From an uncultured virus (IMG/VR IMGVR_UViG_3300031088_000821) (taxonomy: Duplodnaviria > Heunggongvirae > Uroviricota > Caudoviricetes), in IMG/VR virus record IMGVR_UViG_3300031088_000821: a DNA stretch of 64,000 bases; one strand, written 5' to 3'. The stretch's first letter is position 1, and each line of letters opens with the position of its first letter. Positions 5,352 through 59,548 of the stretch are shown piece by piece. The notes beneath the pieces are model-generated. The model saw nothing but the letters and a program-made list of their open reading frames with translations. It did not search any database and was not told the origin of the DNA. The position numbers were made by a program, and so were the translations under genes.

Positions 5352-6632
5352 ATGTCAGTATCAGCAATGATGGGCCCTTCTGTCTACACGAAGGCTCAAC
5401 TCGCCAAGGAACCGGTCGATTTTAGAATCGAGGCCATTGTTTCCGATGGCATGTGGTACTCCATTGAGAAGTGGAAGAGGCTGGCGAGTGTTACCGAAGA
5501 GCAGCTTCAAGACTGGATTGACCGGGGGCTCAAAGGTGGCTATCTTCACCAATCTAAGACGGGAGCAAAGTCCTATCGGGTGGGCCACGAATATGTGAAT
5601 GAGTGGTACAGGAAACATCCAGTACCCCCAGGTAAGCAGCTGTTGAGTTTTCTCTTCCCTCCTCGACTCTGGGGTGGCATCACAGAGGTGGAAGGGTTCC
5701 TTCAGGCTCCTCTCCGGGAAATCAGCATTGTCTCCTTTATCTGCTCTTCGGAGGTGGCGGCAGAGGTCACTGAGGCGCTTCGAGGTGTGGCTCGGGTGCG
5801 AGTTGATCGCAGGGGAGACTACAAGGCCTACGGCCTTTCTGTGCCATACATCAAATCCATCATCGAGGGTGTCTTTGCGAAGTACCCATCTTCGGAAACT
5901 GGAAGAATCTATTCCCGCAATAAGTTCTTTCGCAGGGAAATGGTGGATTTCCCCAAGGCCTATGCAAATGAGATCGTGAACTTCTATGTGGAGTTCAGCA
6001 AGTCTCTTACGAAATCCCAAAAGGAAACCATACAGATCTTCCTCCCCAACCCCGAGGATCAGAAGACACAGATGGTGATCTGGGTAATAACCGCCATAGA
6101 GAAGCTCGACGAGAAAGCTTCGGTGCCCTTTAGTGGGTATCTGGATTCCGTGCTCAAGAGGTGGCCTTTTGATCTACCCATGGATCTCCTCGGCAAGGAC
6201 CTCAGCTCCTTTCAGAGGGAAAGATCGAAGGCTATAGCCAGGCTTCGGGAAAAGCACGGCGAAGATAACGCCAAGAGCTTCCCAGCTGCGGAGATTGCCC
6301 TGGAGATGGGCATCAACACAGAAGAGTTCTCGGATTTTGAAGAGAGCCATAAGGCTTGGGCGCGATCTCAAAACGCTACGAGCCTCACCTGGGCTGAGAC
6401 CTCCGAAGAAAAGCCCGCAGAGGATCTCATGACTGCAACCTCCTCTTCCTTCGATTTTGGTCTCGCCCACAGAATCTCCAAGGCCGCCGTAGAAGCCGCT
6501 CTGAAAACGGGCCACTATGACGATGCCTTCGCTATCATGGAACAGCTCGATATTCACGATGTGGACATGGCTAGGATAGAGGAGCTTTCTCCTGAGTTCA
6601 TAGTAGCGCTAGGAGAGGCTCTCACAGATTAG
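5352..6632 (+). CDS. Divergent sigma-70-like protein with long N-terminal extension
   Basis: VITAIEKLDEKASVPFSGYL resembles sigma region 2.2-2.3; FPAAEIALEMGINTEEF resembles the region 3 HTH. Start moved to ATG 5352 to avoid overlap. Confidence 0.55.
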   Translation: MSVSAMMGPSVYTKAQLAKEPVDFRIEAIVSDGMWYSIEKWKRLASVTEEQLQDWIDRGLKGGYLHQSKTGAKSYRVGHEYVNEWYRKHPVPPGKQLLSFLFPPRLWGGITEVEGFLQAPLREISIVSFICSSEVAAEVTEALRGVARVRVDRRGDYKAYGLSVPYIKSIIEGVFAKYPSSETGRIYSRNKFFRREMVDFPKAYANEIVNFYVEFSKSLTKSQKETIQIFLPNPEDQKTQMVIWVITAIEKLDEKASVPFSGYLDSVLKRWPFDLPMDLLGKDLSSFQRERSKAIARLREKHGEDNAKSFPAAEIALEMGINTEEFSDFEESHKAWARSQNATSLTWAETSEEKPAEDLMTATSSSFDFGLAHRISKAAVEAALKTGHYDDAFAIMEQLDIHDVDMARIEELSPEFIVALGEALTD

Positions 6633-6645
6633 GAGTAAGAAACCA

Positions 6646-7077
6646 ATGGCTGAACTTTCTCCCGCAGAGAGGGATTTCCTGAGCACCAGCGCTCAGGGAA
6701 GATCCTATCTTTCAGGGGAGAAGCCCGAGCCTCGTAGGACTGTCCGCGAACAGGCGTCTTCGAAGCTCGGAGAAATAGGTGCGGGACTTATTAGATCCAT
6801 ACCTCTCATCCTAGGAATAGCCACCATCGCCGCCACTGTGATTTTGGTCTATTTTTACTTCATGGTAAGCACCTATTTGGGGGGAAACACCAGCGAATCT
6901 TTGGAGTCTCTGAAGTCCTATGGGGGCGCTCTTCAGCTAGATGATTCCACTATCAGTGCTCTCGAGTCACTGGAGAGTCTCCAGCAGACTCTTCCTTGGA
7001 TCATTTTTGGAGCACTTTCCGTGGGGTTTGTCTTGACGGTGCTTTCCTTCTACATAATCAGGAGAAAAAATGGCTAA
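6646..7077 (+). CDS. Hypothetical 2-TM membrane protein
   Basis: Two hydrophobic helices; AGGAG RBS. Confidence 0.7.
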   Translation: MAELSPAERDFLSTSAQGRSYLSGEKPEPRRTVREQASSKLGEIGAGLIRSIPLILGIATIAATVILVYFYFMVSTYLGGNTSESLESLKSYGGALQLDDSTISALESLESLQQTLPWIIFGALSVGFVLTVLSFYIIRRKNG

Positions 7078-7747
7078 GAAATCGACCAGCCTCAGCGACC
7101 TCGAACGGTCCAAGGGAGTAAGGATCACGCCTCTCTACAAGGTGCTTTTTGCTCTGCTTCTAGTGCTAGTCATCGGAGCAGGTTTCTTTGCTGTGTCTCA
7201 GTCTATTTCCGCCAATAGCGCTAAAACCCAAGAGGACCCCACGGCTGTGGAGCAGATGGATAGGACTCTCTCGGGTAAGAGCCTCGATGAAGACCGGGCA
7301 GACGCCCTGGCATCAGCCACCGCCCTTCTCCAGGCCACCGGCGCCACCCAGGACCTAGAGGAGACCGAGGTCACCGTTGAGAAGATGGATGGTGGCGATT
7401 TCAGCATGTTGCCAGAAGACTTCGATTCACGGGTCAGGTACTACGACTCCTATGCGGGGGATGAGGCCTTTAAAAACGAGGTGAGGATAAGCGTCTTCAC
7501 CCTGGCTGCCTATGCAAAAAACGCGGCGAAGACGGATGAACTTGCACCCGACGCTGGCAGGCTATCAACCGTGAGAGTCGACCAGGAGACTGGCATCGCT
7601 CAGGTGCCCTTGGAGCTCTATTTCGGCAGCTCAAATCTGCTGAGCCTGGAGATGGTCTATGTGGACGGCCAATGGCTCTTGGAGCCCCACAGTCTCACTA
7701 GCTACATTCGTCTTTCCTACCTCTCTTCCCAGCAGTCCTCGGAGTAG
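7070..7747 (+). CDS. Hypothetical membrane-anchored extracytoplasmic protein
   Basis: N-terminal TM; overlaps the upstream stop; AGGAG RBS. Confidence 0.7.
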   Translation: MAKKSTSLSDLERSKGVRITPLYKVLFALLLVLVIGAGFFAVSQSISANSAKTQEDPTAVEQMDRTLSGKSLDEDRADALASATALLQATGATQDLEETEVTVEKMDGGDFSMLPEDFDSRVRYYDSYAGDEAFKNEVRISVFTLAAYAKNAAKTDELAPDAGRLSTVRVDQETGIAQVPLELYFGSSNLLSLEMVYVDGQWLLEPHSLTSYIRLSYLSSQQSSE

Positions 7748-7986: not shown

Positions 7987-10251
7987 TTGAGCCTACTACT
8001 GAAGAGCATCGAGCTCTCCAACATTAGATCCCATGAGCACTTCATTTTTGAGCCAGCGGAGGAAGGCCTCACGGCCATTTCTGGCCCTACGGGTTCGGGG
8101 AAGTCCACCATCGTGGACTCTTTGGCTTGGACTCTCTTCGGCACTAAGCCAAAGGGCGTAAGCAAGAACTCCGCCATCGCCCGCGAAGGCATGGATTTCA
8201 AGGAGGATCGCTGCTTTTCCCGCATTGAAATCTATCTGGGAGAGGATCTCCTCAAGGTGGAGCGGAAGATGATCTCCAAGGGCGGGGCAGCTGCCTGCAA
8301 TGTTTGGCAATGGGATGGAGACCAGGAAGAGTGGACCCACATGGCTGGAGAGTCGGTGTCCCACGCTGAAGCCTACATTCGCAAGCGGCTAAAAATGGAC
8401 GAAAAGGGCTTTCTCACCTCCGTGCTGGTCCAGCAGAAGCAGGTGGATCAGCTGATCTCCGCCGGGCCTCCCGAGCGGGCAAGGGTCATCGAAAAGCTCA
8501 CGGGAATCTCCGCCATCAGCGCGGGCATTGTGGCGGCTAGGCAGGAGCAAAACAGCATTAAGAAGGCCACCCAGCTCTCCAATGTCGATGAGTCGGAGTA
8601 TGCCGCAGTCAAAGCTAGTTTGGCCAAAGAAAAGGAGTCTTTGAACGCGCTAAAGGAGCGCTATGGGAAGGCCCAGGTCAAAATCAAAGAGGCCAAAGAA
8701 AAGCTCTCTAGCCAGGAAGACAGACTAGAGCTGGAGGAGGCCAATTTCAGCGAAACAAGCGAAGCTCGCAGGGAGCTCGAGTCCCTCGAAGTGAAGATCG
8801 AATCTCTTGAGTCTATTCTCGAAGAAGCTATCGAAGAAAAGAACGAGCTCCGCGGTAAAGTGCCGCAAGGCGCTCAGGGTGGAGACTTCGAAGAGTCAAC
8901 CAGGAAAATAAACGCTTTGCGCCGTAATCTAGCAGAGCATAAGGCGGCTTCAAAGTCGAACGAACGGCAAACAGCTATCTCTAGGAAATCCCTCGAAGAG
9001 CTGCAGAAAAATCTGTCAGCTCTTCCAGAGGTAGATAGTGCTATCACCATTGAGTCCCTCGAAGAGAAGCAAAAAGAGCTGGAAGCAGTAGAAAAAGATT
9101 CATACAGCGCCGCTAAAAAGCTCGATGGGAAAATAACGCAGCTAGAAAGCGCTATTGAGGTTGTTTCCCATGGAGATAACTGCCCAACTTGTTTGCAGAA
9201 AGTGGAAGATGTAAAAGCCGCTGTGCAGTCTCTCGAAGCTTCCCTAGAGGGCTATAGATCTACTAAGAATAGCCATTTGGAGGACTCTGAAAAGGCTTCT
9301 AAAAAGATTCTGAAGATCAGAGAGCAAATCAAGAATCTCAATGCTCGCTCAGATTACGAAGAGGCCATTAGGGATACGGAAAGTGAGCTCGAAGGGCTTG
9401 TTAGTGCCCTCAGGGAAATTAGCTCTTCTGTAAAAAAGGAGGAGGTCGAGCTCAAGGCCCTTGAAAAAATCCATCGGGGCTTAGAAGCCGAAGAATCCAA
9501 CAGGCGGCTCTATGCCGCCTCTCTGAAGAGGGTTCAGAAGACCATAGAGGACATTGAAAAGCTCAAGGCTAAACGAGCTAATGCTGAGGCGTTGGTGGCT
9601 AACTCTAAAGCCCTATCCGAATCAAAGCTCAACAGCTTTAGGAAAAAGACCTATGAGCTCAGAAATCGCTACCAAGCGATGGTAGTTGCCATCAGCGAGA
9701 TCAAGTCCGATGCGCGGCTATTGAACCAATCCATTAAGCATCTGGATGAGAAGAAGGCTCTGCTTAAGCGCGAGCTCAAAAAGCACAAAGATCTGTTGAA
9801 ATCTCTGGAGACATCAACTCTCACCCTGGAGACTCTCACAGAGTTCCGTGCAAACAGGGTGAAGACAGTGCTTCCGGCAATTGAGGCCACAGCTTCGGAG
9901 CTTTTGAGTAGATTTACAGATGGCAAGTTTATTGGCTTGAAGCTCGATGAGAAATTCAATGCTAGTGTAGTTCTTTCATCGGGCGTCGAACGGCCCGTGG
10001 GGCTTCTCTCGGGTGGTGAGCTCTCCGCTGCCTCCATTGCCCTGAGGTTGGCTATTAGCACCATGCTGAATGGCTCCGATGGCAGAGGACTCATCATTCT
10101 CGACGAGGTGCTTGTCTCCCAGGATGCGGATAGATCTGATCTCATTCTTTCCACAATTGGCGATGTCTGTGAGGGGCAGGTAGTTCTCATTGCTCACGGT
10201 GAGGGAGTGACCGCCATTGCCGACAAAAAGGTGGAGATGGCGACTTCCTAG
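7987..10251 (+). CDS. sbcC: SbcC/Rad50-family SMC-like ATPase
   Basis: Walker A GPTGSGKS, long coiled coil, zinc hook CPTC, signature LSGGE, Walker B LIILDE. Confidence 0.88.
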   Translation: MSLLLKSIELSNIRSHEHFIFEPAEEGLTAISGPTGSGKSTIVDSLAWTLFGTKPKGVSKNSAIAREGMDFKEDRCFSRIEIYLGEDLLKVERKMISKGGAAACNVWQWDGDQEEWTHMAGESVSHAEAYIRKRLKMDEKGFLTSVLVQQKQVDQLISAGPPERARVIEKLTGISAISAGIVAARQEQNSIKKATQLSNVDESEYAAVKASLAKEKESLNALKERYGKAQVKIKEAKEKLSSQEDRLELEEANFSETSEARRELESLEVKIESLESILEEAIEEKNELRGKVPQGAQGGDFEESTRKINALRRNLAEHKAASKSNERQTAISRKSLEELQKNLSALPEVDSAITIESLEEKQKELEAVEKDSYSAAKKLDGKITQLESAIEVVSHGDNCPTCLQKVEDVKAAVQSLEASLEGYRSTKNSHLEDSEKASKKILKIREQIKNLNARSDYEEAIRDTESELEGLVSALREISSSVKKEEVELKALEKIHRGLEAEESNRRLYAASLKRVQKTIEDIEKLKAKRANAEALVANSKALSESKLNSFRKKTYELRNRYQAMVVAISEIKSDARLLNQSIKHLDEKKALLKRELKKHKDLLKSLETSTLTLETLTEFRANRVKTVLPAIEATASELLSRFTDGKFIGLKLDEKFNASVVLSSGVERPVGLLSGGELSAASIALRLAISTMLNGSDGRGLIILDEVLVSQDADRSDLILSTIGDVCEGQVVLIAHGEGVTAIADKKVEMATS

Positions 10252-10305: not shown

Positions 10306-11496
10306 ATGCCTCATTTTTCCGATGACAGGTTTTGGAATAGCTGCCTCAATAAGCTAGCCCATTCGGGCGCTTCCGAGCTGGTGGCCAACGGCCCAGGACA
10401 GTTTTTCATCACCATGAATGGCATAAAGCAGAAGCTGGATGCTCCTCCCATGAGCGAGAGAGCCTATGCCAAGTTTGTGGCTGACCACATAGCGCCCCTT
10501 ATCCACACCGATGAGGAGTTCGACGAGCAGGGCTATCTTCTCGAAGGCCGCTACGAAGTTTCTGGCCCTGAGGGCTTCGAGGGCAGATGCCACATAGTTA
10601 CTGCCCCCGCTTCCTATGTTCCTCTGGTGACTATGACAAAGATCTCGGGCACCGGAAGCACCATAGAGTCCATTGCTGCTTCGGGTTCCATGACCACAGA
10701 GATGATGAACTTTCTCATTGCGTCTGTTCGGGCTAAGCTCACCATTGTTCTTTCGGGTCAGTCGGGAGCAGGTAAAACCACAACGCTTCAGGCTTTGTCG
10801 AAGTACTTCAGCGATCAGGATAGAATCGGCGTAGGCGAGGACATCCCAGAGATTCGACTTAGCCAACCGAACTGTTTCTATCTTCATTCAGTGCCCTGGA
10901 AGCCCGGCTTTGACCCCAACAAGACGGCGGACCTCTCATGGGTTGTGAAGCAGTTCCTCCGGATGAGATTGGATAGGGGAATCATCGGTGAGACCCGAGG
11001 TAAAGAGTTCGCCGACTTCCTCGTAGCGGCCAACTCGGGTATGGATGGATCCATGACAACCATCCACGCCAACGACCCATCGGGTGCCCTAGACAAGATG
11101 ACCCGCTTTGCGCTGCAGGGTTCCGAGCTCCAGCCCATTCGCTCCATCAACAAGGAAATCGGTAGCGCAGTGGATCTCGTTGTTCAGCTTGCCCGCATCG
11201 ATGGGAAACACAGAGTAACCCACATCCAAGAGATCACTAACACTGTTTCGGATTCTACAGATTCCAAACTGGCTAGCCAGACGATCTACGGCTATGATCG
11301 CAAAGCTGACAACTGGGAGAAGAAGAACGTTCTCGGCGACAAGCTCAAGGACAAGTTTGCTCTCGCTGGCATTGACATTAGACCTTTCCTCTCCTCCCCC
11401 GTGGGCTCCCGGGCCAATGCTCATCAGGCTCCCCTAGCTCAGACAAAGGAACCTGGCGACTTCCAGGGTAACCCCTTCGGAGCTCGAAACATCTAA
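10306..11496 (+). CDS. CpaF/TadA/VirB11-family secretion or pilus ATPase
   Basis: GQSGAGKTT, Asp box GEDIPEI, LRMRLDRGIIGETRG, His box SMTTIHAN. Confidence 0.88.
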   Translation: MPHFSDDRFWNSCLNKLAHSGASELVANGPGQFFITMNGIKQKLDAPPMSERAYAKFVADHIAPLIHTDEEFDEQGYLLEGRYEVSGPEGFEGRCHIVTAPASYVPLVTMTKISGTGSTIESIAASGSMTTEMMNFLIASVRAKLTIVLSGQSGAGKTTTLQALSKYFSDQDRIGVGEDIPEIRLSQPNCFYLHSVPWKPGFDPNKTADLSWVVKQFLRMRLDRGIIGETRGKEFADFLVAANSGMDGSMTTIHANDPSGALDKMTRFALQGSELQPIRSINKEIGSAVDLVVQLARIDGKHRVTHIQEITNTVSDSTDSKLASQTIYGYDRKADNWEKKNVLGDKLKDKFALAGIDIRPFLSSPVGSRANAHQAPLAQTKEPGDFQGNPFGARNI

Positions 11497-31555: not shown

Positions 31556-32575
31556 ATGACTCTAGGAGTGGTAGCGCTCTCGATCTACGTGCTGGGCTTC
31601 CCAATTCTCACTTGGGCTCTTGCCTTTCTTTACAAGAGAGTCATCGTTCGTAGAGCCGAAGAGAAGATCCTACGAAAGAAGCTTTCAAAAAAGCCGCCCC
31701 AGCCAGTGGGGCCAAAGTGGTGGAAGCGCTTTAAGTTTACCCTAAGGGATAAGAGGCAGCTCATTCTCGGTAGGGGCAAGAAGAAGGAAGAAAAAGCCAG
31801 TGGTTTCGGCATTCGTAGAAACCTACTCTGGTGGATTCTCTGGCTGGGCGGCCTAGGATTGGCTGCGGCGAGCTTCACGGGCCAGTGGAGCTTTATCTTC
31901 TGGTCGCTATTGGCCTATGTTGTCGCCTTCTCCTACGCAGTTCAATCTGCCCATAAGGTCGTAAAAAAGCAGGAATACGTGGTCGGTAAGATCTACGAGA
32001 TAGCCCAGCCTAAGCTTGGACTGCCCAATCAGGATCCCGCCGAAAGCCATGTCCGCATCATCGAATGGCGAGACTATGTGAAGCCCGATAAGGTGGAAAT
32101 CGATGTTCCCACTAACTTCTCTTCGGATGGAGAAGAGAGCTTCATGAAACAGTTCAATCAGGTTTTCGGCAGAGAGACCGCATGGGTGCCCGACAACAAG
32201 CTCGACGAGGGCAAAATGGGTTGGGACTACGAAGAGGGCAAGGTCACCATCAGGGCTGTGCCTCCCCTCCCCATGCGAGCACCTTGGGCTGCCCACTATG
32301 TTGACAATCCTGCCATCGCTTGGAGCTTCTTCCCCATCGCTCTCGGCGTGGAGAACGGCACTACCCTCACCCATCCAGAAACTGGCGAAAGGGAATACGT
32401 GCTGGGCTTCGATCTCTCCGGCAAGCAGGCCGATGCGGCTAAAGCAGCCGGAGAGGTGATGTCTACAAAGATCACGGTGTCTCCAATGGTGCTCGTGGGG
32501 GGCGGAACAGGAGGAGGAAAGTCCCTACCGGTGGCGGAAAAGGTCGCTGTTATTCGTAAGAAGTCAACGATCTAA
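31556..32575 (+). CDS. N-terminal half of an FtsK/SpoIIIE or coupling-protein-like ATPase, ending in a putative short N-intein
   Basis: TM helices, then IALG…VLGFDL…PMVLVGGGTGGGK (Walker A), then only SLPVAEKVAVIRKKSTI*. Confidence 0.7.
   Translation: MTLGVVALSIYVLGFPILTWALAFLYKRVIVRRAEEKILRKKLSKKPPQPVGPKWWKRFKFTLRDKRQLILGRGKKKEEKASGFGIRRNLLWWILWLGGLGLAAASFTGQWSFIFWSLLAYVVAFSYAVQSAHKVVKKQEYVVGKIYEIAQPKLGLPNQDPAESHVRIIEWRDYVKPDKVEIDVPTNFSSDGEESFMKQFNQVFGRETAWVPDNKLDEGKMGWDYEEGKVTIRAVPPLPMRAPWAAHYVDNPAIAWSFFPIALGVENGTTLTHPETGEREYVLGFDLSGKQADAAKAAGEVMSTKITVSPMVLVGGGTGGGKSLPVAEKVAVIRKKSTI
32522..32575 (+). other. Putative 17-aa split-intein N fragment (block A)
   Basis: S-L-P-x-x-E-x-V-x-V directly after the P-loop GK, a common intein insertion site. 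Confidence 0.6.
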
Positions 32576-32669
32576 GAGGTAAAGTGCGGCAAAGAGTTTT
32601 GGACTATCAAAGTACCATGTGAAAAAGATTCTGAATAGCTGGTGGAATCTGCTTCGATAGGATGGGTCT

Positions 32670-32831
32670 ATGAACACTAATATGCTTAATGAAAACATGA
32701 GAGACCTCAAGAACAGCTCTACCCGCGCCATTGCCATCGGCGAGCTCAAGAGCCTGGAAGCCCAGAAGCGGAGAGCCCGCCGGGGCGGTTTTAGGGCTCT
32801 GCTGGCCCGGCTCACCGGCAGAAATCACTGA
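32670..32831 (+). CDS. Small basic 53-aa protein, probably leaderless
   Basis: ATG 6 nt after TAGGAT (32658-32663); MNTNMLNENMRDLK…LARLTGRNH*. Confidence 0.55.
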   Translation: MNTNMLNENMRDLKNSSTRAIAIGELKSLEAQKRRARRGGFRALLARLTGRNH

Positions 32832-32914
32832 CCCCTTCGCACCGAAGCTCGGCCTCGATCTGGCGATGTTTAGAGATATGCTCCATAGGAAAAACTTTTA
32901 GAAGGAGCTAACAG

Positions 32915-34153
32915 ATGGCTGGTAGATTCCACAACGGCCCCAATGGCCCCGGGCTTTGCAAGTCGACGGGAGCTAGGGGCTGCCCCTTCGATCCCGAGGG
33001 CACGGGCGCTAATCATTTTGGCTCTATGGAGGAAGCTCAGGAAGCCTATGAAGCTGAGCTCACATCTGAACATGGGCTTGTAGCGACAGCTTCTAGGAAT
33101 CCTCGAGCTAAAGCTTGGACACCATCGCCCCACGAAGCGGCGCTCAAAGCTCGAAACGCAGAGCTTGCACGGCGGCTAGTGGAAGAGCGCGCCAAGGCCA
33201 ATGTGGACGATGGCGTTATGACCGAAGCCGAAGATCCCGCGAAGCTCGAAAGGGGCACTCGACGGCTCAAGGAAGCTGTTACCTTCGCAGAAAGCAGAGG
33301 TAACACTGCTCTCACAAACAAGCTCTCTAAGGCAAAGGTGCTCCCTTCTGGTTCCTTCAGGGATGGCAACACTCGCATCGGCACTGATAAGACCATTCGA
33401 ACATATGTGGCTGACAAGTATGTCGCCGAGGGTAGAGCAGAGATCGAGGGCGCCATTCAAGCCGCTATCGACAGGGGAGACATCACCGAAGGTAAGTACA
33501 TGCACAGGGATGAGGCAGCTACCTACAGCCTCACGGTTGCTCCCGGTTTGGATCGCGGCGCCTACGAGAGACTTCCCGAAAGCCTTAGGGAAAAGATTAG
33601 TTCTCCCCGGCAAAGCCCCTCCATTGATCTTGCAAAGGAAAAGCTTCCCGCCGATCTCTACGAGAAAATCACCACTGACAGCCAGGTGATGGATTTCGTG
33701 GTTTCAAAGACTCCCGACATAGGCCAGTGGCGCGCTGGTAGGCCTGTAACCGATATCAGCGGAGATAGCTCTGAGAGTAGAGCCGAATGGGGTCTCATGA
33801 ATCTCAGTGATTGGACAGCTCGAACGGATGCTACTTTCGGCTCTAAGAAGGAGCGCACAGCTGAGCTCAACCACGCCAAGGAAGTTATCAAGAGCTCTGC
33901 CGCAAAGCATGACGGCAACATTTTTTCACCCGGTAGGGCCTACGGCAACGGAGTGCTAGTCTCTGGCCGCAGGGTCCTCAATAGGGCAGCTATGGAGGAG
34001 CATCTCACGCCCGCACAGATCAAGTCCATTACCCGCAAGGAGCTTGCTCCCGACCCAGAGAAGGCCCGTAAGGTTCTTTCGGAAGCTGACTATAAAACTG
34101 TCTTTGAGAGGAACACCGCTTCTCTGAGAGTGACACCCAAGAGGGGAAAGTAA
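32915..34153 (+). CDS. Hypothetical protein with N-terminal H-C-C-H motif and internal duplication
   Basis: AAGGAG RBS; FHNGPNGPGLCKSTGARGCPF…NHFGSMEEAQ. Confidence 0.75.
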   Translation: MAGRFHNGPNGPGLCKSTGARGCPFDPEGTGANHFGSMEEAQEAYEAELTSEHGLVATASRNPRAKAWTPSPHEAALKARNAELARRLVEERAKANVDDGVMTEAEDPAKLERGTRRLKEAVTFAESRGNTALTNKLSKAKVLPSGSFRDGNTRIGTDKTIRTYVADKYVAEGRAEIEGAIQAAIDRGDITEGKYMHRDEAATYSLTVAPGLDRGAYERLPESLREKISSPRQSPSIDLAKEKLPADLYEKITTDSQVMDFVVSKTPDIGQWRAGRPVTDISGDSSESRAEWGLMNLSDWTARTDATFGSKKERTAELNHAKEVIKSSAAKHDGNIFSPGRAYGNGVLVSGRRVLNRAAMEEHLTPAQIKSITRKELAPDPEKARKVLSEADYKTVFERNTASLRVTPKRGK

Positions 34154-34215
34154 GACTGAATCGAAGACAGTTATCTTCGATAAGGTGACGCCACATCATC
34201 CAGGAAGGAACAGAA

Positions 34216-34455
34216 ATGGCCACTAATCTTGCCGAGGCCCTAGCCGAAGACATCATTTCCTCAGGGCTCGCCAATGGAGGAGACCTTCCTGGTCAGCTCA
34301 GATCTCTAGATGGCGATGTGCTCGTAGAGCTAAGCCAAGATGGCTCTACAATTTCCCTAGCGGAAGATGGCCAGTGGGTTCTCGACCTCTCCACCACCGA
34401 CGAGGACTTTAACGAAAAGTTCATTGCCAATCTGGCATCTCTGCTCAACTTTTAG
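34216..34455 (+). CDS. Small acidic hypothetical protein
   Basis: AGGAAGGA RBS; TAAGGT -10 at 34181. Confidence 0.65.
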   Translation: MATNLAEALAEDIISSGLANGGDLPGQLRSLDGDVLVELSQDGSTISLAEDGQWVLDLSTTDEDFNEKFIANLASLLNF

Positions 34456-34597
34456 CTCAGGCTTTTAGGTTTGGTGCAATTCGGGCGCACCAAAGAAAGG
34501 AGAATCTATGGGGACGACTATTCTCTAACCATAGCTATCCACGACGAGGGGAGATCATTTGACAGGAATTGGAAACAACTAATAGAACCCTATTCGC

Positions 34598-34631
34598 GAA
34601 GGTCCTGCAGCGTCATTGCTGCAGGACCTTC
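34598..34631. terminator. Strong hairpin, possible terminator
   Basis: GAAGGTCCTGCAGC-GTCATT-GCTGCAGGACCTTC perfect 14-bp stem. Confidence 0.6.
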
Positions 34632-34660
34632 CTTATTTACCCTCTGAGCGGCTATCTAAC

Positions 34661-34728
34661 GCGATCTGAGCGACCTGGGGCGCGCCTTGCAACAATGATA
34701 CGTCCGTCCTTTTTGGCCGCTTCAGATT
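34661..34728 (-). repeat. 68-nt intergenic hairpin element, copy C
   Basis: Reverse complement reads AATCTGAAGC…GGTCGCTCAGATCGC. Confidence 0.7.
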
Positions 34729-34758
34729 GTCGCTGAGCAAAGATGTTAAGATGTGCCC

Positions 34759-35583
34759 ATGGAAATCACCGAAAAGCTGCCACAGATCGCCGTTGACGGC
34801 CCCTGGCGCGTGGAGAGCTACAGAACGGAATTGAGGCCTCTCCGTAGTGGTGGAGATTATCTATTGGTGAACCTCTTGGAGGAATCGGCCCTGGGGTTCT
34901 ATGGTGAGTTCCAATCCACCCTTCGCCATCTAGTGGGCCAAGCGACCAGTGGTAAGCTCAGAGATTCCATAGAGCTCATCGCCTTCAATCGAAGAGACGC
35001 CTTAGATGAGCTCGCGAAGCTCAGGAGGCCTAAGCTGCCCGAAGAACTGCTTGAATCTTCTGGCTGGTCCCTGGGGGAGATTCTGGAGGCACTTATGGCC
35101 TACTGCGATGGTCTCGAAGAAGCGCTCCGGAAAACTCCCTATGGCTTGGCCAACAAGAAGTTCGATCTGCTGCTGCTCCCCTGCTTCGAAGATGATTTCC
35201 ACGCATCCCAAACGGGAATGCTTCTCCAGAAATTCCTAGAGCGGGCGGCAAAGCTCAGAGTTGTTCCTGTGCTTCTAGCTACTGATCCAGCCATCGTGGA
35301 CAGCTCTATTTCAGAGCTAATTTCCACGGAGATCTTCCTGGGCGCAGCCGCTATGCGCTTCTGCAGCGATAGCTATGCTATGGAGATAGCTCGTGGCAAC
35401 CCCACTATGGAGGTTGCTGGATTTGCCTTGAGGAGAAGCTTCGAAGGGGCAAGCATAGAAGAGATCCATGAGCTTCTCTACCAGCCAACTAGAGAAACGG
35501 CCGCCCGCCGGGAAGAGGATCGTCTGGAACAGGAGCTCTACCTGGCTTATCTAGATAACTTGAGGGAAAATGGACGACAATAA
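34759..35583 (+). CDS. Hypothetical protein, possibly a degenerate FtsK-like ATPase domain
   Basis: LLLLPCFED and RAAKLRVVPVLLATDP echo the FtsK Walker B and GRAxGIHLILATQRP motifs; no Walker A; ATG 6 nt after TAAGAT. Confidence 0.5.
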   Translation: MEITEKLPQIAVDGPWRVESYRTELRPLRSGGDYLLVNLLEESALGFYGEFQSTLRHLVGQATSGKLRDSIELIAFNRRDALDELAKLRRPKLPEELLESSGWSLGEILEALMAYCDGLEEALRKTPYGLANKKFDLLLLPCFEDDFHASQTGMLLQKFLERAAKLRVVPVLLATDPAIVDSSISELISTEIFLGAAAMRFCSDSYAMEIARGNPTMEVAGFALRRSFEGASIEEIHELLYQPTRETAARREEDRLEQELYLAYLDNLRENGRQ

Positions 35584-36271
35584 AGCTCTAAGCGAAGAAC
35601 CAGCCGTTGCAGGCTTAAAGCTCGCAGAAGACGAGTATCTCGAAATCATCACCATGGGCGAAGTGAAGTCCGGCGATGTGCTAGTGGGATCCCAGGGAAG
35701 AACCCAAGTGGTTGAAACCTTCGATGAGCACATTCCTCAGGACCTCTACTCGCTGGAAACCGATTCGGGTCTTATCTTTGAAGCCTCGGGCAACCATCTT
35801 ATCTACATAGTTCACGCCATGGATAGGGACCTTCACAAGCTAAGACTGGCGACGGGTAAAAGCCTAGCCCAGAAACTCTCCAAAGAGGTAGTAGCAGAGC
35901 TCAAGGAGCTAGCGGAGGCCGAATCTACCCAGAGCCTCTATGTGGCCAATTTCATAGAGCTCATTGGAGATAGCACTCCCCCGATGGCCAATGCTGTGGT
36001 CAGGACTGCGGAGAGCCTTGGTCCTATAGCCGAGTCCAATATCTACGTGGATGATTTAGACAGTCCCGAAGGTAGCCCTCTCTATGATTCCGCTACTCCT
36101 CTCTACAGCTCAAAGCTCATGGCTCAGCAGCTGCTTTCACTTTTCTCCATTGAAAAATCTCGAAAGCGATGGCCACTCATCGTGGGAAGAGTAGTGCCCG
36201 TTTCGGAGCTACTGGACTACGACCTAGAAGACGTCTACATTCCCGACCCCATTCAAGTGGAGAAAAGCTGA
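35570..36271 (+). CDS. Stand-alone partial Hint (intein) domain lacking blocks A, F and G
   Basis: ITMGEVKSGDVLVGSQG…LYSLETDSGLIFEASGNH (block B)…GRVVPVSEL; no N-terminal nucleophile block and no terminal HN. Confidence 0.75.
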   Translation: MDDNKALSEEPAVAGLKLAEDEYLEIITMGEVKSGDVLVGSQGRTQVVETFDEHIPQDLYSLETDSGLIFEASGNHLIYIVHAMDRDLHKLRLATGKSLAQKLSKEVVAELKELAEAESTQSLYVANFIELIGDSTPPMANAVVRTAESLGPIAESNIYVDDLDSPEGSPLYDSATPLYSSKLMAQQLLSLFSIEKSRKRWPLIVGRVVPVSELLDYDLEDVYIPDPIQVEKS

Positions 36272-37134
36272 TGGCAAAAACTCAGAAATCGAAGACGGCA
36301 ACTTTTCAAAGAGCGACTAAGAACAGCCAAAGGAAGAAGACCATTTGGCGGTGGAGCATCGGGATTGCTCTTGTGGTGATTTTTGGAATCTTCATCGGTT
36401 TCCTAAACCACAGCCAGAGCCAGAAAGCCGAAGAGCGGGAGAAAAGCCAACAGGAAGAGATCGCTAGCCTACCCGAAAACAAGCCCGATCTCATTTCCTC
36501 CACGGGCAGCTTCGCCATTGGGCAGGATGGCACCCCCATAGAGCCATCAGAGGCTAGGACCGATGTGCCTCGAGTGGAGTTCATCTTCGATCTCCACTGC
36601 CCCGGTTGCCACATGGTGGACACGGCACTCAATGAAAGCCTCGTGGACCATGTGAAGGACGGCTCCATTCAGCTCTGGCTAACTCCCGTGGCCTTCACGG
36701 CTTCCCATTCTACAGACTACTACTCGGATAGGGCGGCGTCCGCTCTGGTGACTGTTGCTCAAGACCAGCCAGAGAAACTGCTTCCCTTCATGGCTAAGCT
36801 CTACCAGGAATTCCCCGATTCCGGACCTTCCTATGAGCCCGTTTCCTATGAAACCATCGGATCCTGGGCTCAGGAAGTCGGAGTTTCGGCGGAGGTTGCT
36901 GATAGCTTCTCCGAGCAGAAATACCGCTGGTTTGCTACTGAAAATGTAGAGGTGCAGAAGAATCGTTTGGAGATCTTCCCAGCTGGAGAAATGACCACGC
37001 CTACAATCCTCATCGGCGGCAGCCAGGACGACATGGGTGTGCTCGAAGATTTCTATAGGGTGAGCTTCTCGGATTCGGACGTGGTCGGTACTTTCTCAAA
37101 GGCCTTCGAGGAGGCCACTGGCCAGAGCTGGTGA
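36271..37134 (+). CDS. Membrane-anchored DsbA-like thioredoxin-fold protein
   Basis: TM helix; FDLHCPGC active site; TTPT cis-Pro loop; ATG overlaps the upstream TGA. Confidence 0.8.
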   Translation: MAKTQKSKTATFQRATKNSQRKKTIWRWSIGIALVVIFGIFIGFLNHSQSQKAEEREKSQQEEIASLPENKPDLISSTGSFAIGQDGTPIEPSEARTDVPRVEFIFDLHCPGCHMVDTALNESLVDHVKDGSIQLWLTPVAFTASHSTDYYSDRAASALVTVAQDQPEKLLPFMAKLYQEFPDSGPSYEPVSYETIGSWAQEVGVSAEVADSFSEQKYRWFATENVEVQKNRLEIFPAGEMTTPTILIGGSQDDMGVLEDFYRVSFSDSDVVGTFSKAFEEATGQSW

Positions 37135-40139: not shown

Positions 40140-40811
40140 TTGCTGAAGCTATTGGCAATCCTCACCATGGTCATTGACCACTTGGGAGCAGTTTTCTTCC
40201 CAGATCAAATCTGGATGAGAGCCATCGGCAGGCTCACCATGCCGATCTTTGGCTATGCTATAGCTCGGGGCTTTTTCCACACGAAGAATGTGGATAAGTA
40301 CATTTTGAGAATGGCCTTGTTGGCGGTGTGTTCTCAGCTGCCTTTCACGCTTCTCTTTGGCCAGGGGCGGGATGTGGCTATAGGATCATGGGAGTTTTGG
40401 CAACCCACCCTTAACATGGTGGTGCCCTGGACCCTGGCGCTTTTGCTTCTCAAGTGGTCTCCCCTCTTCATAGCGCCAGTAGTGGGATTGCTCTACTTCC
40501 TGGTGCCTATGGATTACAGCTCCTTGGTGATTCTACTTCCCATGGTGATCTACTGGTTCTGGTTCAGAAGAAAAGATCCCTGGTTGGCGCTGATTGGCAC
40601 CAGCGGAGTTCTTGGGCTAATAGCACTAAGCTTCCAACCGATTCAATGGTTCTCCCTACTAGCCATTCCTCTGATCTATCTGCTAGAGCCCTATGATGGC
40701 AAGCTGAAGATCAAGCGCTGGTTTTTCTACTGGTTCTATCCAGTCCACATTGCGCTTTTCTTTGGCGTAGCTCTGTTCTTGGGTTACCCAACTCTACTAA
40801 CACCCGCCTAG
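40140..40811 (+). CDS. traX: TraX-family membrane protein (pilin acetylase-like)
   Basis: LKLLAILTMVIDH, IGRLTMPIF, GFFHT, DYS, FFYWFYPVH. Confidence 0.85.
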   Translation: MLKLLAILTMVIDHLGAVFFPDQIWMRAIGRLTMPIFGYAIARGFFHTKNVDKYILRMALLAVCSQLPFTLLFGQGRDVAIGSWEFWQPTLNMVVPWTLALLLLKWSPLFIAPVVGLLYFLVPMDYSSLVILLPMVIYWFWFRRKDPWLALIGTSGVLGLIALSFQPIQWFSLLAIPLIYLLEPYDGKLKIKRWFFYWFYPVHIALFFGVALFLGYPTLLTPA

Positions 40812-44751: not shown

Positions 44752-47094
44752 ATGGCTAAAGAAGAAGTAGAACTCGTGGATTTTGAGGAGTTCTTCGATG
44801 GCGCTTTCGGTAAGGGTGTAGTAGAGATCCACGACTACAAGGGGAAGAGGAGTTTCTTCGGAGCCGTTGGGGCCCTGGCCGCGATGGTGGTGCTTTCGGT
44901 TATCGCTGGCGCTCTCGTGGCGGTTCCTGGCCTTGTCTACGCTTCCGCCGCTGCGCAGCTCGCTGTCCCCGTGGCGGAGTTTTGGAAAAGCCTGCCCGAG
45001 GATCTCCCCGAAGTGTCCATTGGGGAACGCAATCGGCTATTAGACAAAAACGGCAACGTCTTCGCTGAGCTTTGGACAGAAGACAGGATCACCCTCGATT
45101 CCATCGATGACATCTCTCCCCACGCCATAGAGGCGCTCATCGACACAGAAGACAAGCGCTTCTATGAGCATGGTGGCTTTGATCCCATTGGTACTGTGCG
45201 CGCCGCCCTCTCATCGGGCGGTGGCTCGGGCATCACCCAGCAGCTGGTGAAAAACCTGCAGTTCTACGACATGGCCGGTCGAGACAAGCAGGATGAGGCC
45301 ACGGAAGAGAGCTACAATAGGAAAATTCGTGAGCTCAAATACGCCATGAGCTATGAAGAGTCACACTCCAAAAATGAGATTCTTCTCACATATTTCAACA
45401 CCGTTGCTTTCGGCAAGCCCACGATCTACTCCATTGAGGCAGCTGCTAACTATTTCTTCGACAAGTCCGCCAAGGATCTCGATCTCGCCGAGTCTGCGGC
45501 GCTCGTGGGCTCGGTAAAGAATCCTTCGATTTACAATCTCGATTCCACCGATGAGGAGACAATCAAGATCTGGAAGGATCGACAGGCTACGGTTCTTGCT
45601 CGAATGGTTGACGAAGGCAGCATTAGCCAAGAGGAGGCCGATGAAGCTTCCGCCCAAGAGCTCACCATCGTGCGCAAAGCTGAGTCCGCGGGAAATTGCT
45701 CCTCCTCTAAGTACCCCTTTTATTGCAACTATGTAGTTGAGTATCTCATGGACTCTCCTAAGTTCGGAGAAACCGAGGAAGAGCGGGCCGCCATTCTAGC
45801 CAAGGGCGGACTCACCATCAATACCTACCTGGATCCCGTGGCTCTGGAGACCATGGAGAACCAGCTTCGCAACGACCTGGGTACGGAGAACAGGCTCATT
45901 GCTCCTTCGGCGATTGTAGAGCCGGGCACTGGCGGCGTAGTCGCCATAGCCTCTAACAGGCTTTACGGCGAAGGACCTGGTAAAACCACCATCATTCTTC
46001 CCAACGTGGACGCAGCCACTGGCTCCACCTATAAGATGATTGATCTTGCAGCAGCATTGGAAGTGCTACCCGAAAGGGATCTAACTTTTAGTAGTGGCTG
46101 CCCCTACGTGCCACCCGCGGGTTTCGATGCTCCTCAGGGCGGCTTCAACAACTCCAATGGCTGCGGCTATCAGTCTGGAGTGCTCAACTATAAGCAGGCA
46201 ACCGCTTGGTCCTCCAACACCTGGTTCCTTACCCTCGCAGTAAAGGCTGGCATGGACAACGTGTTGGCAATGTCCGAAAAGATGAATCTGCGGACAGATG
46301 GACTCAATGAGAGCTCTTTGGCAATGGCCATTGGCTCAAAAGAGAACTCACCTATCCGAATGGCGGCGGCCTATGCTACCTTTGCCAACGAGGGAGTTTT
46401 TTGCCCCGCTACTCCGGTCGCTTCCTATGCCTACGATGATGGCTCTTCTCCCGTGATGCCTGAGACCTACGACCCCACAGCGGACTCTTGTAGAAGCGTC
46501 ATGTCTCCCTATGCTGCCTCCAGGGTGCTTCAGGCGATGCGAGCTAACACCTATCCGGGTGAGGTGGACGGAGCTTTTGGAACTAAAGGCTATATCTCCG
46601 GCTATGATGCCGTGGGTAAGTCGGGAACCAATGAGCATCTCAACAGCGTCTGGGCTCAGGTTTCCAAGAACTACTCCATTTTCGCCAATGTCTACGACAT
46701 GGATAGCCCCAACAACGGCTTTGCTGGCTACATTCGCGGCGTCTATAACATGCAATCTCCCGCAACCACCATTGGCTCGGATCTTCTCAGGAATGTGGTT
46801 AGCGCCACTAACCCCCAGAGATCGTCGCTCAACTTTGACAGCAATGATCGGGATTACGTCGAAGTTCCAGTGGATAGAAGAGAGTTCTTCACCGTACCCT
46901 CCTTCGCGGGTCTTCAGCCCGAACAGGCTCTAGCGGTGGCTAGCTCCCTGGGGATCACCGTCCACGTGGACAAGGAAACGGTAGCCACTCCCGAGCACTA
47001 TAGCTCAGGCGTTGTGGTGGAACAGAGCATAGAGGCGGGAACTCAGCTGCCTAAGGGATCCAAGAAGGAACTCATTTTGAAGCTGGGTGAGTAG
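44752..47094 (+). CDS. Class A penicillin-binding protein (transglycosylase, transpeptidase, PASTA)
   Basis: EDKRFYEHGG, GSGITQQLVKN, RKIRE; SxxK STYK, SxN SSN, KSG; C-terminal PASTA. Confidence 0.92.
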   Translation: MAKEEVELVDFEEFFDGAFGKGVVEIHDYKGKRSFFGAVGALAAMVVLSVIAGALVAVPGLVYASAAAQLAVPVAEFWKSLPEDLPEVSIGERNRLLDKNGNVFAELWTEDRITLDSIDDISPHAIEALIDTEDKRFYEHGGFDPIGTVRAALSSGGGSGITQQLVKNLQFYDMAGRDKQDEATEESYNRKIRELKYAMSYEESHSKNEILLTYFNTVAFGKPTIYSIEAAANYFFDKSAKDLDLAESAALVGSVKNPSIYNLDSTDEETIKIWKDRQATVLARMVDEGSISQEEADEASAQELTIVRKAESAGNCSSSKYPFYCNYVVEYLMDSPKFGETEEERAAILAKGGLTINTYLDPVALETMENQLRNDLGTENRLIAPSAIVEPGTGGVVAIASNRLYGEGPGKTTIILPNVDAATGSTYKMIDLAAALEVLPERDLTFSSGCPYVPPAGFDAPQGGFNNSNGCGYQSGVLNYKQATAWSSNTWFLTLAVKAGMDNVLAMSEKMNLRTDGLNESSLAMAIGSKENSPIRMAAAYATFANEGVFCPATPVASYAYDDGSSPVMPETYDPTADSCRSVMSPYAASRVLQAMRANTYPGEVDGAFGTKGYISGYDAVGKSGTNEHLNSVWAQVSKNYSIFANVYDMDSPNNGFAGYIRGVYNMQSPATTIGSDLLRNVVSATNPQRSSLNFDSNDRDYVEVPVDRREFFTVPSFAGLQPEQALAVASSLGITVHVDKETVATPEHYSSGVVVEQSIEAGTQLPKGSKKELILKLGE

Positions 47095-57391: not shown

Positions 57392-59548
57392 TTGTCAGTT
57401 TCAGGCGTAGAGAATGTTCCAGAGGAAGTGGATTACAGATCCCTCAATGCGGAGCTCAACCTCGTTGGTGCTGACGGCAAGCTGCAGTTCTCCAAAGACA
57501 AGCAGGCTGTCCGTCAGTACTTCCTCACCCATGTGAATCGGAAGACCCAGTTCTTCCACAATCTCCGTGAGAAGCTGGACTATCTCATGGACTACAACTA
57601 CTACGAAGAGAACACCATTGAGCAGTATGAGTACAGCTTTGTGAAGTCTCTCTTCAAGAGAGCCTACGGCTACAAGTTTCGCTTTGAGAGCTTCTTGGGT
57701 GCCTACAAGTACTACACTTCCTACACCCTGAAGACCTTCGATGGCAACAACTACCTCGAGCGCTTCGAGGACAGGGTTGCTATGACCGCTCTCTATCTCG
57801 GCCAGGGCAACGAAGAGCTCGCAGAGTCCATCCTCGATTCCATCATGACTGGAGAGTTCCAGCCCGCTACTCCCACATTCCTCAATGCGGGTAAGGCCCA
57901 GCGCGGTGAGCTCGTGAGCTGCTTCCTCCTGAGAGTCGAAGATAACATGGAGTCCATCAGCCGGGCCATCACGAGCTCCCTTCAGCTCTCCAAGCGCGGC
58001 GGTGGAGTTGCCCTCAACCTCACCAACCTCCGAGAGCAGGGCGCTCCCATCAAGCACATTGAAAATCAAGCTTCGGGCGTAGTTCCCGTCATGAAGATGC
58101 TCGAAGATGCCTTCAGCTATGCCAATCAGCTGGGTGCCCGCCAGGGTGCAGGCGCTGTGTACCTACACGCTCACCACCCCGACATCATGCGCTTCCTGGA
58201 CACAAAGCGGGAAAACGCCGATGAGAAAATCCGCATTAAGACCCTATCTCTCGGTGTAGTCATTCCCGACATCACCTTTGAGCTAGCCAAGCAGAACGCG
58301 GACATGTACCTCTTCTCCCCCTATGACGTGGAGAGGGAGTACGGCGTTCCCATGTCAGAGGTGAACATCACCGAAGAGTATGAGAACCTCGTCAACAACG
58401 GAAAGATCAGCAAGACAAAGATCAAGGCTCGTAGCTTCTTCCAGACCATCGCAGAAATCCAGTTTGAATCTGGCTACCCCTACATCCTCTACGTGGACAG
58501 CGCCAACCGCGCTAACCCCATCGCGGGGCAGATCAACATGAGCAACCTCTGCTCCGAGATCCTGCAGGTCAACACTCCGTCCACCTTCGAGGCGAACGGC
58601 AGCTATGACCACATCGGTAGGGACATTTCCTGCAACCTGGGCTCCATCAACATTGCCAAGGCCTACGACTCCAAGGACTTCTCGAAGCTCATCGATTCGG
58701 CGATGCGTGCCCTCACCGCCGTTTCGGACATGAGTGACATCGAGTCCGTACCTTCGGTGGCTAACGGCAACTCCAAGTCCCACGCGGTAGGCCTTGGCGC
58801 CATGAACCTCCACGGATTCTTGGCTCGCGAGGGAATCCACTACGACTCCCCCGAAGCCGTTGAGTTCACCCGGTTCTACTTCCACGCTGTGAACTTCGAG
58901 ACCCTCAAGGCCTCCAACAGAATCGCCCGTGAGCGGGGAGAGAGCTTCTTCGAGTTCGAGAAGTCCAAGTACTACACGGGAGAGTACTTCGATGAGTACC
59001 TAGCCAAGGACTGGACTATCACCACTCCTCGGGTGAAGGAGCTCTTCGAGAACACTTCCATCAAGATTCCCACAGCTGCTGAATGGGCTCAGCTCCGCAA
59101 GGACATCAGAGAGCACGGTCTCTACCACGCCTACCGTCAGGCAGTTGCTCCCACGGGAAGCATCTCCTATGTGAACAACTCAACCTCCTCCATCCACCCC
59201 GTATCCTCTCCCATCGAGGTTCGCAAGGAGGGTAAGATCGGTCGAGTTGTCTACCCCGCCCCCTTCATGAACAACGACAACATCGAGTACTACAGGGACG
59301 CCTACAAGATCGGCCCTGAGGCCATCATCGATGTTTACGCTGCCGCTACGGAGTCGGTGGATCAGGGCATGAGCCTCACCCTCTTCTACACGGATGAATC
59401 CACCACTAGAGACCTCAACCGAGCCTATCTCTACGCTTGGAGAAAGGGCATCAAGACAATCTACTACGCCCGTGTTCGCGCGGCAGCAGTAGAGGGAACT
59501 GAGCTCGAAGGCACCGCACTGGAATTCTGCGAATCCTGCCAAATCTGA
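57392..59548 (+). CDS. nrdE: Class Ib ribonucleotide reductase alpha subunit
   Basis: [44 protein letters not shown]-terminal CESC. Confidence 0.96.

Follow-up and report, generated by a model that had tools for sequence, protein, structure and literature searches.

A candidate natural split intein in three pieces at the P-loop of an FtsK-like ATPase from a giant uncultured element

The DNA considered here is a window of 64,000 nucleotides from an uncultured virus of the Caudoviricetes (IMG/VR record IMGVR_UViG_3300031088_000821), and the element carrying it is about 475 kb long (475,513 bases, according to one database row). Every long open reading frame (ORF) of the window lies on the + strand, and five of them, named ORF1 to ORF5, occupy positions 31,556 to 36,271. 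ORF1 encodes 339 residues, which comprise N-terminal hydrophobic segments, a soluble domain, a hydrophobic strand and a perfect Walker A motif, followed by only 17 residues and a stop codon, while ORF5 encodes a small protein of 233 residues some 3.0 kb away (from the coordinates). The literature describes inteins that come from a single gene or from two genes. The sequence evidence collected below makes it probable that the products of this locus include two pieces of a natural three-piece split intein which interrupts an FtsK-like ATPase at its P-loop, between the Walker A lysine and the following serine, the third piece being attributed by analogy to a distant gene known from relatives. The features on which this reading is built are as follows; N-extein, IntN and IntM denote the putative N-terminal host segment, N-terminal intein piece and middle intein piece, respectively.

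31556..32521, + strand: ORF1 up to Walker A K322, the putative N-extein, membrane-anchored N-terminal part of an FtsK-like ATPase (from the ORF and its sequence, and 146 homologs)
32501-32521, + strand: Walker A motif G316-K322 (GxxxxGK) of ORF1 (from the sequence)
32522..32575, + strand: putative IntN, the 17-residue tail S323-I339 with the pattern of intein block A, and the stop codon (from tail conservation in 119 of 120 homologs)
32573-32575, + strand: stop codon of ORF1
35570..36271, + strand: ORF5, putative IntM, a free-standing Hint middle piece of 233 residues (from profile matches, family alignments, an AlphaFold 2 model, VIA-align 2 and ESM Atlas leads)
35648-35815, + strand: ORF5 residues 27-82, putative N-lobe strands
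35786-35797, + strand: ORF5 block B, S73-x-x-H76
35816-36169, + strand: ORF5 residues 83-200, inserted helical domain
36170-36268, + strand: ORF5 residues 201-233, corresponding to the last strands of a canonical N-intein

A preliminary description of this DNA had reported that ORF1 stops 17 residues after the Walker A lysine, that neither alternative frame continues the ATPase and that the tail fits intein block A; the coordinates and the stop are indeed so, both other frames are full of stops and carry no continuation of the ATPase, and the block-A pattern recurs in the homologs. Searching for homologs of ORF1 gave 146 proteins at E <= 0.001, mostly of 330-370 residues, 120 of which are listed. 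In 119 of the 120 listed homologs a tail of 12-60 residues (median 17) stands between the GxxxxGK motif and the stop codon. Across these 119 tails, position 1 is Ser in 72 and Ala in 47, position 2 is Leu in 91, position 5 is Asp in 79 or Asn in 16, position 6 is Thr in 106, position 8 is Val or Ile in 116 and position 10 is Val in 89, so that the consensus reads [S/A]-L-x-x-D-T-x-[V/I]-x-V. The tail of the window, S-L-P-V-A-E-K-V-A-V, has at position 6 Glu and not the consensus Thr; Glu occurs there in 10 of the 119 tails and is frequent in the sub-clade of the window. The preliminary description had held that a non-conserved tail would count against a split intein, and the tail is conserved. 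The pattern thus appears to represent intein block A beyond chance, and the tail of ORF1 a conserved feature and no truncation.

The second piece is supplied by ORF5, whose coordinates and quoted stretches were also as described before. It has eight relatives of 219-258 residues, further members occur in related records, and the family is about 230 residues long. Because Pfam and PHROGs find nothing significant in ORF5 alone, its likeness to the Hint fold comes to light only with profiles; ORF5 by itself, compared with solved structures, reaches a DnaB mini-intein only at E 0.32. A profile of nine members gives E 7.5e-4 for the gp41-1 intein and E 0.004 for DnaB mini-inteins; one of 15 members gives E 1.4e-6 for the gp41-1 intein (query 20-78 on intein residues 11-68) and E 3.4e-4 for MchDnaB-1, a mini-intein of class 3 (query 27-78 on chain residues 15-67). 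Since these matches start at intein residues 11-15, the homology begins after the first 10-15 residues of an intein. At its other end, the family stops where block F would start, and the first strands and blocks F and G are missing, in agreement with the earlier claim that the Hint homology of ORF5 begins past the tail of ORF1 and lacks blocks F and G. The block B residues S73 and H76 are invariant in all aligned members (9/9 and 15/15), while position 12 of block B, Ile78 in the window, is Trp in 4 of 15 members and F, M, L, I or V in the others. Both profile lists are headed by artificial multi-copy RecA chains, of which single stretches reach E about 0.3-0.4 with the nine-member profile and none passes alone with the 15-member profile; kinship with RecA was rejected, since the whole-chain values reflect repeated copies of a short chance likeness. 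The stronger E-values of ORF5 alone on concatenated RecA chains were discarded likewise, as inflated by the repeats and lacking any significant single stretch.

The AlphaFold 2 model of ORF5 has a mean predicted local distance difference test (pLDDT) value of 69, and the helical insertion at residues 83-200 is modelled with confidence. This domain of about 118 residues occupies the usual place of the endonuclease or linker of inteins. Among 50 rows returned by VIA-align 2 for the model there are seven intein entries (Z 3.2-4.2, model residues 48-233), and the neighbours of ORF5 in the ESM Atlas are viral intein-fragment clusters, to be taken as leads only. The tail of ORF1 ends in basic residues and ORF5 starts with acidic ones, exactly as had been noticed before, and when the end of the tail is compared with the stretch before the first conserved Gly of IntM, opposite net charges are found in 6 of 7 genome pairs, the seventh having -1 versus 0.

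The preliminary description had foreseen a further gene, in which a short N-terminal stretch with blocks F and G ending in His-Asn is followed by Ser, the FtsK Walker B motif and ATQRP. Such a gene does exist in relatives, namely in 7 of the 10 records of the viral collection that carry an ORF1-like gene (5/5 complete ones) and at 55 of 56 metagenome loci. Record G001, complete and 420 kb long, and record G002 have an ORF whose match to Pfam FtsK_SpoIIIE covers the profile only from position 53 onward. That ORF, of 364 residues (L006:1381-2475), begins with about 40 residues that contain a block-F-like stretch (Cys16) and end in His39-Asn40, and continues with Ser41 and the post-P-loop helix, then with a Walker B-like Asp-Glu and ATQRP. 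Its residues 41-116 correspond to FtsK_SpoIIIE positions 53-131 at E 2.6e-12, above the cut-off, and in the ORF1 homolog P0043 the P-loop region weakly matches positions 30-61 of the same family (PF01580, E 0.022); therefore, the two exteins abut. Thus the Walker A motif stands in ORF1, where Pfam gives no match, and the Walker B-like Asp-Glu and ATQRP stand in the C-part of the relatives.

Six aligned C-intein genes share invariant M1, P11, C16, R24-L25-F26 and H39-N40-S41, and C-intein genes are 56-65% identical across lineages. The residue before His-Asn, block G position 5, is Thr or Ser in the relatives, and the +1 residue is always Ser. A 44-residue C-intein of one relative matches the MchDnaB-1 mini-intein at E 7.7e-4 (chain 110-138) and, at E 0.0095, Msm DnaBi1 (6bs8), its Cys aligning with the block-F Cys region of 6rix and 6bs8. 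Since IntM and the C-intein both match MchDnaB-1, the pieces fall on consecutive stretches of a single solved intein, without overlap. The scan of metagenome contigs which gave the 56 C-part loci found the C-intein motif in 55 of them, one of which is broken by internal stops; the remaining locus is a later piece of the extein. An in-frame P-loop upstream is seen at none of the 55 C-intein loci. Counted back from the block-F Cys, no more than 47 codons stay open at 47 of the 55, and at the other eight, all of the G001-like lineage, a frame left open by chance runs antisense to a neighbouring gene. No IntM fused to either neighbour was present among 120 N-part homologs and 55 C-part genes within the length ranges searched.

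Two side observations concern these genes. The IntM profile weakly matches (E 1e-4 to 1e-3) stretches inside ORFs of 667-768 residues (G001:374915-375073, G002:126020-126178 and G005:105663-105815), which in G001 and G002 lie directly downstream of the C-intein gene, and which probably represent another intein in a neighbouring gene. At L087:639-1791, two degenerate tandem copies of the C-extein without C-intein lie just upstream of an intact C-intein gene.

The pieces also occur together. The profile of ORF1 homologs finds 11 loci in 10 records of the viral collection. An ORF5-like gene is present in nine of these ten records, at 0.9-8.4 kb from the ORF1-like gene, and both partners are present in all five complete records. 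The FtsK match of the C-part starts at position 53 in all seven records that have it, and the three records without C-part are 31-46% complete. According to the coordinates, N-part and C-part genes are 80-118 kb apart, and because of this distance a third gene missing from the 64-kb window is expected. In record G006, of 437,576 bases and classed with inverted terminal repeats, there are two copies of the ORF1-like and ORF5-like genes, inverted relative to each other (L017 and L018); either a true long repeat or an error of assembly could account for this.

From these features we infer that the three pieces assemble and splice, that the middle piece is needed and that this genome, too, has the third gene. 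ORF1 would provide the membrane-anchored N-extein together with a 17-residue N-intein made of the first strands and block A; ORF5 would be a free middle intein without extein, contributing the remaining N-lobe strands, block B Ser-x-x-His and the helical domain of about 118 residues; and the third gene, expected 80-120 kb away by analogy with the relatives, would encode a C-intein of about 40 residues with the block-F Cys at position 4 and the block-G His-Asn, fused to Ser+1 and the remainder of the ATPase, that is, the post-P-loop helix, Walker B and ATQRP. The three chains would assemble into one Hint fold and trans-splice to give the full-length ATPase. Judged by the known size of mini-inteins, a tail of 17-18 residues together with a C-intein of about 40 falls short of a Hint fold, and because these approximately 58 residues lack block B and most of the Hint strands, the middle piece should be required. 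ORF5 is the only conserved and syntenic candidate for it, and covers exactly the missing segment.

As for the chemistry, the block-F Cys would attack the N-terminal junction, the N-extein would be moved to Ser+1 and the terminal Asn would cyclise, a class-3-like course that is proposed because position 1 is Ala in about 40% of the homologs and the block-F Cys is invariant. For the same reasons Ser1, the nucleophile of the preliminary description, is unlikely to act as such (Ala in 47/119 tails). The mechanism is called class-3-like, and the intein is not filed as a full class 3 member, because position 12 of block B is Trp in only 4 of 15 IntM sequences and Ile78 in the window; Trp, Cys and Thr of the characteristic triplet are all present in three lineages, spread over two genes. 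A somewhat better than even chance is given to the wider claim that this is a natural three-piece intein of the class 3 type, in which a 17-residue IntN, a diffusible IntM without extein and with an inserted domain, and a 40-residue C-terminal piece (IntC) encoded about 100 kb away must all meet, in other words a natural three-input AND gate. That the free IntM serves as a switch for transfer is speculation.

Several observations weigh against this reading. The third gene was not found by tblastn in the 64-kb window, and none of the 56 metagenome C-part loci is on a contig with the length of the window's own element. The Trp-Cys-Thr triplet is incomplete in the lineage of the window, and record G004 (31% complete) has an ORF1-like gene without either partner, in addition to a separate intact FtsK-like gene. 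Residues 1-56 of the ORF5 model are of low confidence, which might be expectable for the N-terminal strands of an incomplete fold, and Foldseek finds no match to this model at E <= 0.001. Pfam detects no Hint family in ORF5 itself, and Hint matches in 8 of the 15 family members are all below threshold (best E 0.0029). Furthermore, the charge pairs are drawn from few independent clades. A complex prediction for the three pieces of one relative (residues 170-357, 1-270 and 30-247), made without controls, gave a score of 0.01 with the mark at 0.32, which speaks neither for nor against binding.

Other explanations of the same genes have to be compared with the three-piece intein. The pieces could assemble through the intein-derived fold and never splice, the Hint remnants being a non-covalent docking module for the two ATPase halves; the incomplete triplet and the variation of residue 1 between Ser and Ala would suit such a module, whereas the residues that serve the chemistry only, namely the block-B His, the block-F Cys, the terminal His-Asn and Ser+1, are invariant even among C-intein genes only 56-65% identical, and an intein that stayed in the P-loop should interfere with the ATP site, as for the P-loop inteins in the available part of PMC6195587, so that docking without splicing is unlikely. 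It could also be that ORF5 is no partner of ORF1 and is a Hint protein in decay or put to another use, for instance as a decoy or an inhibitor, the tail and the C-intein forming a two-piece pair or being inactive. The complex prediction without usable answer, the large inserted domain and the translational coupling of ORF5 to ORF4 instead of ORF1 are consistent with this, but it leaves a pair of about 58 residues devoid of block B and most Hint strands, and it does not fit the presence of IntM within 0.9-8.4 kb in nine of the ten records with ORF1-like genes, its coverage of exactly the segment absent from the other two pieces, or the complementary charges in paired genomes; it is accordingly regarded as quite improbable.

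Decay of the system in this particular genome, with the third gene lost and ORF1 and ORF5 left as relics, would explain why that gene was found neither in the window nor on a metagenome contig of the element's length and why Glu replaces Thr at tail position 6, as in 10 of 119 tails. Nevertheless, in the sub-clade of the window the ORF1 genes (69-74% identity) are intact, and so are the IntM genes (41-89% identity), in which block B does not vary, and in relatives the third gene always lies 80-118 kb away, beyond the reach of the window, which makes decay highly improbable. The simplest alternative, namely that ORF1 is a truncated ATPase pseudogene whose tail is the start of the post-P-loop helix, draws on a 40-residue query of P-loop and tail, which among solved structures matches only generic P-loop proteins, i.e., helicases and ABC proteins with GK[ST] and a similar hydrophobic pattern thereafter, at E about 1-2. 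This reading was already disfavoured and can hardly be credited, since the stop is conserved in 119 of the 120 listed homologs at 35-74% identity and the C-extein itself begins, at Pfam position 53, with the true post-P-loop helix.

The three-piece intein thus preferred can be set beside known systems. Engineered three-piece inteins (Ssp DnaB, Rma DnaB, Npu DnaE and gp41-1) share its topology, a short IntN on the N-extein, a free IntM and an IntC on the C-extein; they are laboratory constructs of class 1, whereas the present system is natural, class-3-like and conserved across many giant elements, with a middle piece that carries an inserted domain of about 118 residues and with genes up to about 118 kb apart. 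The natural two-piece split inteins, including gp41-1, the best sequence match of IntM, are likewise phage-borne or metagenomic and located in ATPase or replication genes. Their N-intein has about 90-100 residues, while here the N-intein is itself divided. Among atypical natural split inteins with a short N-intein, the AceL TerL intein reportedly has a very short N-intein after the N-extein and a long remainder fused to the C-extein, in two pieces; here, the middle part is in none of the 55 C-intein genes.

In the available parts of PMC2807308 and PMC6195587, class 3 inteins have a non-nucleophilic residue 1, use the block-F Cys as the first nucleophile, have Ser or Thr at +1 and reside typically in the P-loops of ATPases. 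To the extent covered there, the class 3 P-loop inteins (mycobacterial DnaBi1, 6bs8; MchDnaB-1, 6rix/6riy; mycobacteriophage Bethlehem DnaB) share with the present one, the C-intein features of which are those of its relatives, the P-loop site, Ser or Thr at +1, Cys at block-F position 4, the tolerance of a non-nucleophilic residue 1 and the His-Asn end. IntM and the C-intein both match chains of class 3 DnaB inteins by sequence. Those inteins are contiguous, whereas the present one is split, with Ser at block B position 7, Trp at position 12 in 4 of 15 IntM sequences, and Thr or Ser at block G position 5. In the 'fractured genes' of PMC2677866, as its available part has them, neighbouring halves flank an endonuclease gene, whereas here the C-part gene is distant. 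A search of open full texts for natural three-piece inteins, with subscription journals and supplements outside its scope, returned engineered constructs only. The accessible portion of a 2023 preprint (10.1101/2023.01.30.526203) reports that the N-fragment of a split intein was cut in two and that all three pieces were needed; the same portion holds that more than two intein pieces had not been proved in nature, probably as very short fragments are hard to recognise.

If the reading is true, there is a conserved natural case in which evolution divides the Hint domain at the same kinds of sites as engineers do, and protein ligation and logic gates could draw on many variants of co-evolved, orthogonal three-piece parts with class-3 chemistry. 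Tails of 12-20 residues after a P-loop would then be shown to include intein pieces which gene annotation ignores, and one would have to ask why a giant mobile element ties the assembly of an ATPase resembling a DNA pump to three or more separately encoded products.

The same ATPase gene has up to three inteins in some relatives, two of them split. Ten of the 120 listed ORF1 homologs, with 473-486 residues (P0043, P0068, P0086, P0108, P0112, P0113, P0119, P0124, P0132 and P0134), as well as L016 near 11357, contain a second intein, a contiguous mini-intein of 140-149 residues that starts with Cys1 and ends in Asn followed by Cys+1, located nine residues upstream of the Walker A lysine, with the short tail retained. 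Since these ten carry both, the gene is a repeated intein target. Pfam Intein_splicing recognises two of the ten, below its cut-off, and a hidden Markov model made from the ten mini-inteins failed to align the split pieces (all E > 0.1); the upstream mini-inteins are of a different lineage at a different site. In the C-part gene of some giant contigs, a third intein lies after Walker B, starting with Ala or Ser and having a block-F Cys and Thr-His-Asn before Thr. It is contiguous, with about 330 residues, in L099-L102 (L099:286-2289), and is itself split in L103, L104 and L107 (L103:1459-2247), L109:1390-2244 looking like the matching C-piece; consequently, the ATPase can span at least four genes. 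Zinc-ribbon-rich proteins adjoin split sites (L007:1-1278 on the - strand, L103:2211-3389 and L103:8-1462), with matches to Pfam DUF7487 (E 1.6e-22 and 5.4e-18) and, in one, to DUF4379 treble-clef fingers (E 6e-45). Their genes may be free-standing homing-endonuclease-like genes in a 'fractured gene' layout.

Between the two intein pieces of the window lie the following genes.

32915..34153, + strand: ORF2, 412 residues, seemingly not part of the intein (a 431-residue relative occupies the same interval in L002 and L004)
34216..34455, + strand: ORF3, 79 residues, acidic (an acidic ORF of 109 residues is at the equivalent place in L002 and L004)
34753..35583, + strand: ORF4, putative stand-alone domain of FtsK/HerA/EccC fold without Walker A, a pseudo-ATPase (from the AlphaFold 2 model and Foldseek)

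ORF4 (276 residues) was considered as the missing C-terminal half of the ATPase and was ruled out. Its AlphaFold 2 model (pLDDT 83) is that of a whole FtsK/HerA/EccC-like domain lacking Walker A, and Foldseek matches it to EccC (1.7e-6), HerA (3.4e-6), the FtsK motor (6e-6) and also TcpA, within a range of 1.7e-6 to 2e-5. Moreover, its conserved N-terminus has neither His-Asn nor a +1 nucleophile, a profile comparison with the C-extein family shows no kinship (hhalign probability 0.2), all nine of its relatives are stand-alone proteins of 245-284 residues, and G001, a complete relative, has no member of the family. The stop of ORF4 overlaps the start of ORF5 by 14 nucleotides, and this overlapping pairing recurs in L001 (4089-4976 and 4960-5595). 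ORF4 is thus predicted from its model to be a stand-alone pseudo-ATPase domain, translationally coupled to ORF5 and no intein piece, and it may be an accessory subunit of the translocase.

Relatives of the window were not readily found by single sequences: blastn and tblastn against phage genomes and scans of viral contigs with single proteins gave no close relatives, representative prokaryote genomes contained no relative of ORF1, ORF1 and ORF4 as single sequences matched nothing among solved structures, nor did ORF4 among longer proteins, and neither of these two, any more than ORF5, has a significant match in Pfam or PHROGs. The relatives in the viral collection have terminal repeats. No Pfam Phage_capsid or Terminase_6N match occurs in any of the five complete relatives, and no structural PHROG match among the 20 window ORFs scanned. 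The window encodes T2SSE, a type II/IV secretion ATPase (10306-11496), TraX (40140-40811), a class A penicillin-binding protein with PASTA (44752-47094), a sigma-70-like protein (3763-4962) and the large subunit of ribonucleotide reductase (57392-59548). The element may be plasmid-like rather than a phage, and a role of the ATPase in DNA transfer, packaging or secretion is speculation.

ORF2 shares a short N-terminal Cys-containing motif followed by 'EEA..A/YE' with several otherwise dissimilar proteins, none of which has a Pfam match (window 32915-34153; L001:2294-3340 and 5635-7137; L004:6764-7918 and 8058-9353). Downstream of the intein genes, positions 36169-37134 encode a thioredoxin-like membrane protein (Pfam Thioredoxin_4, E 2.4e-7), the true start of which is probably further downstream because the ORF as listed overlaps ORF5 by about 100 nucleotides, and a relative also follows the region of the ORF5-like gene in L001 (7165-8055).

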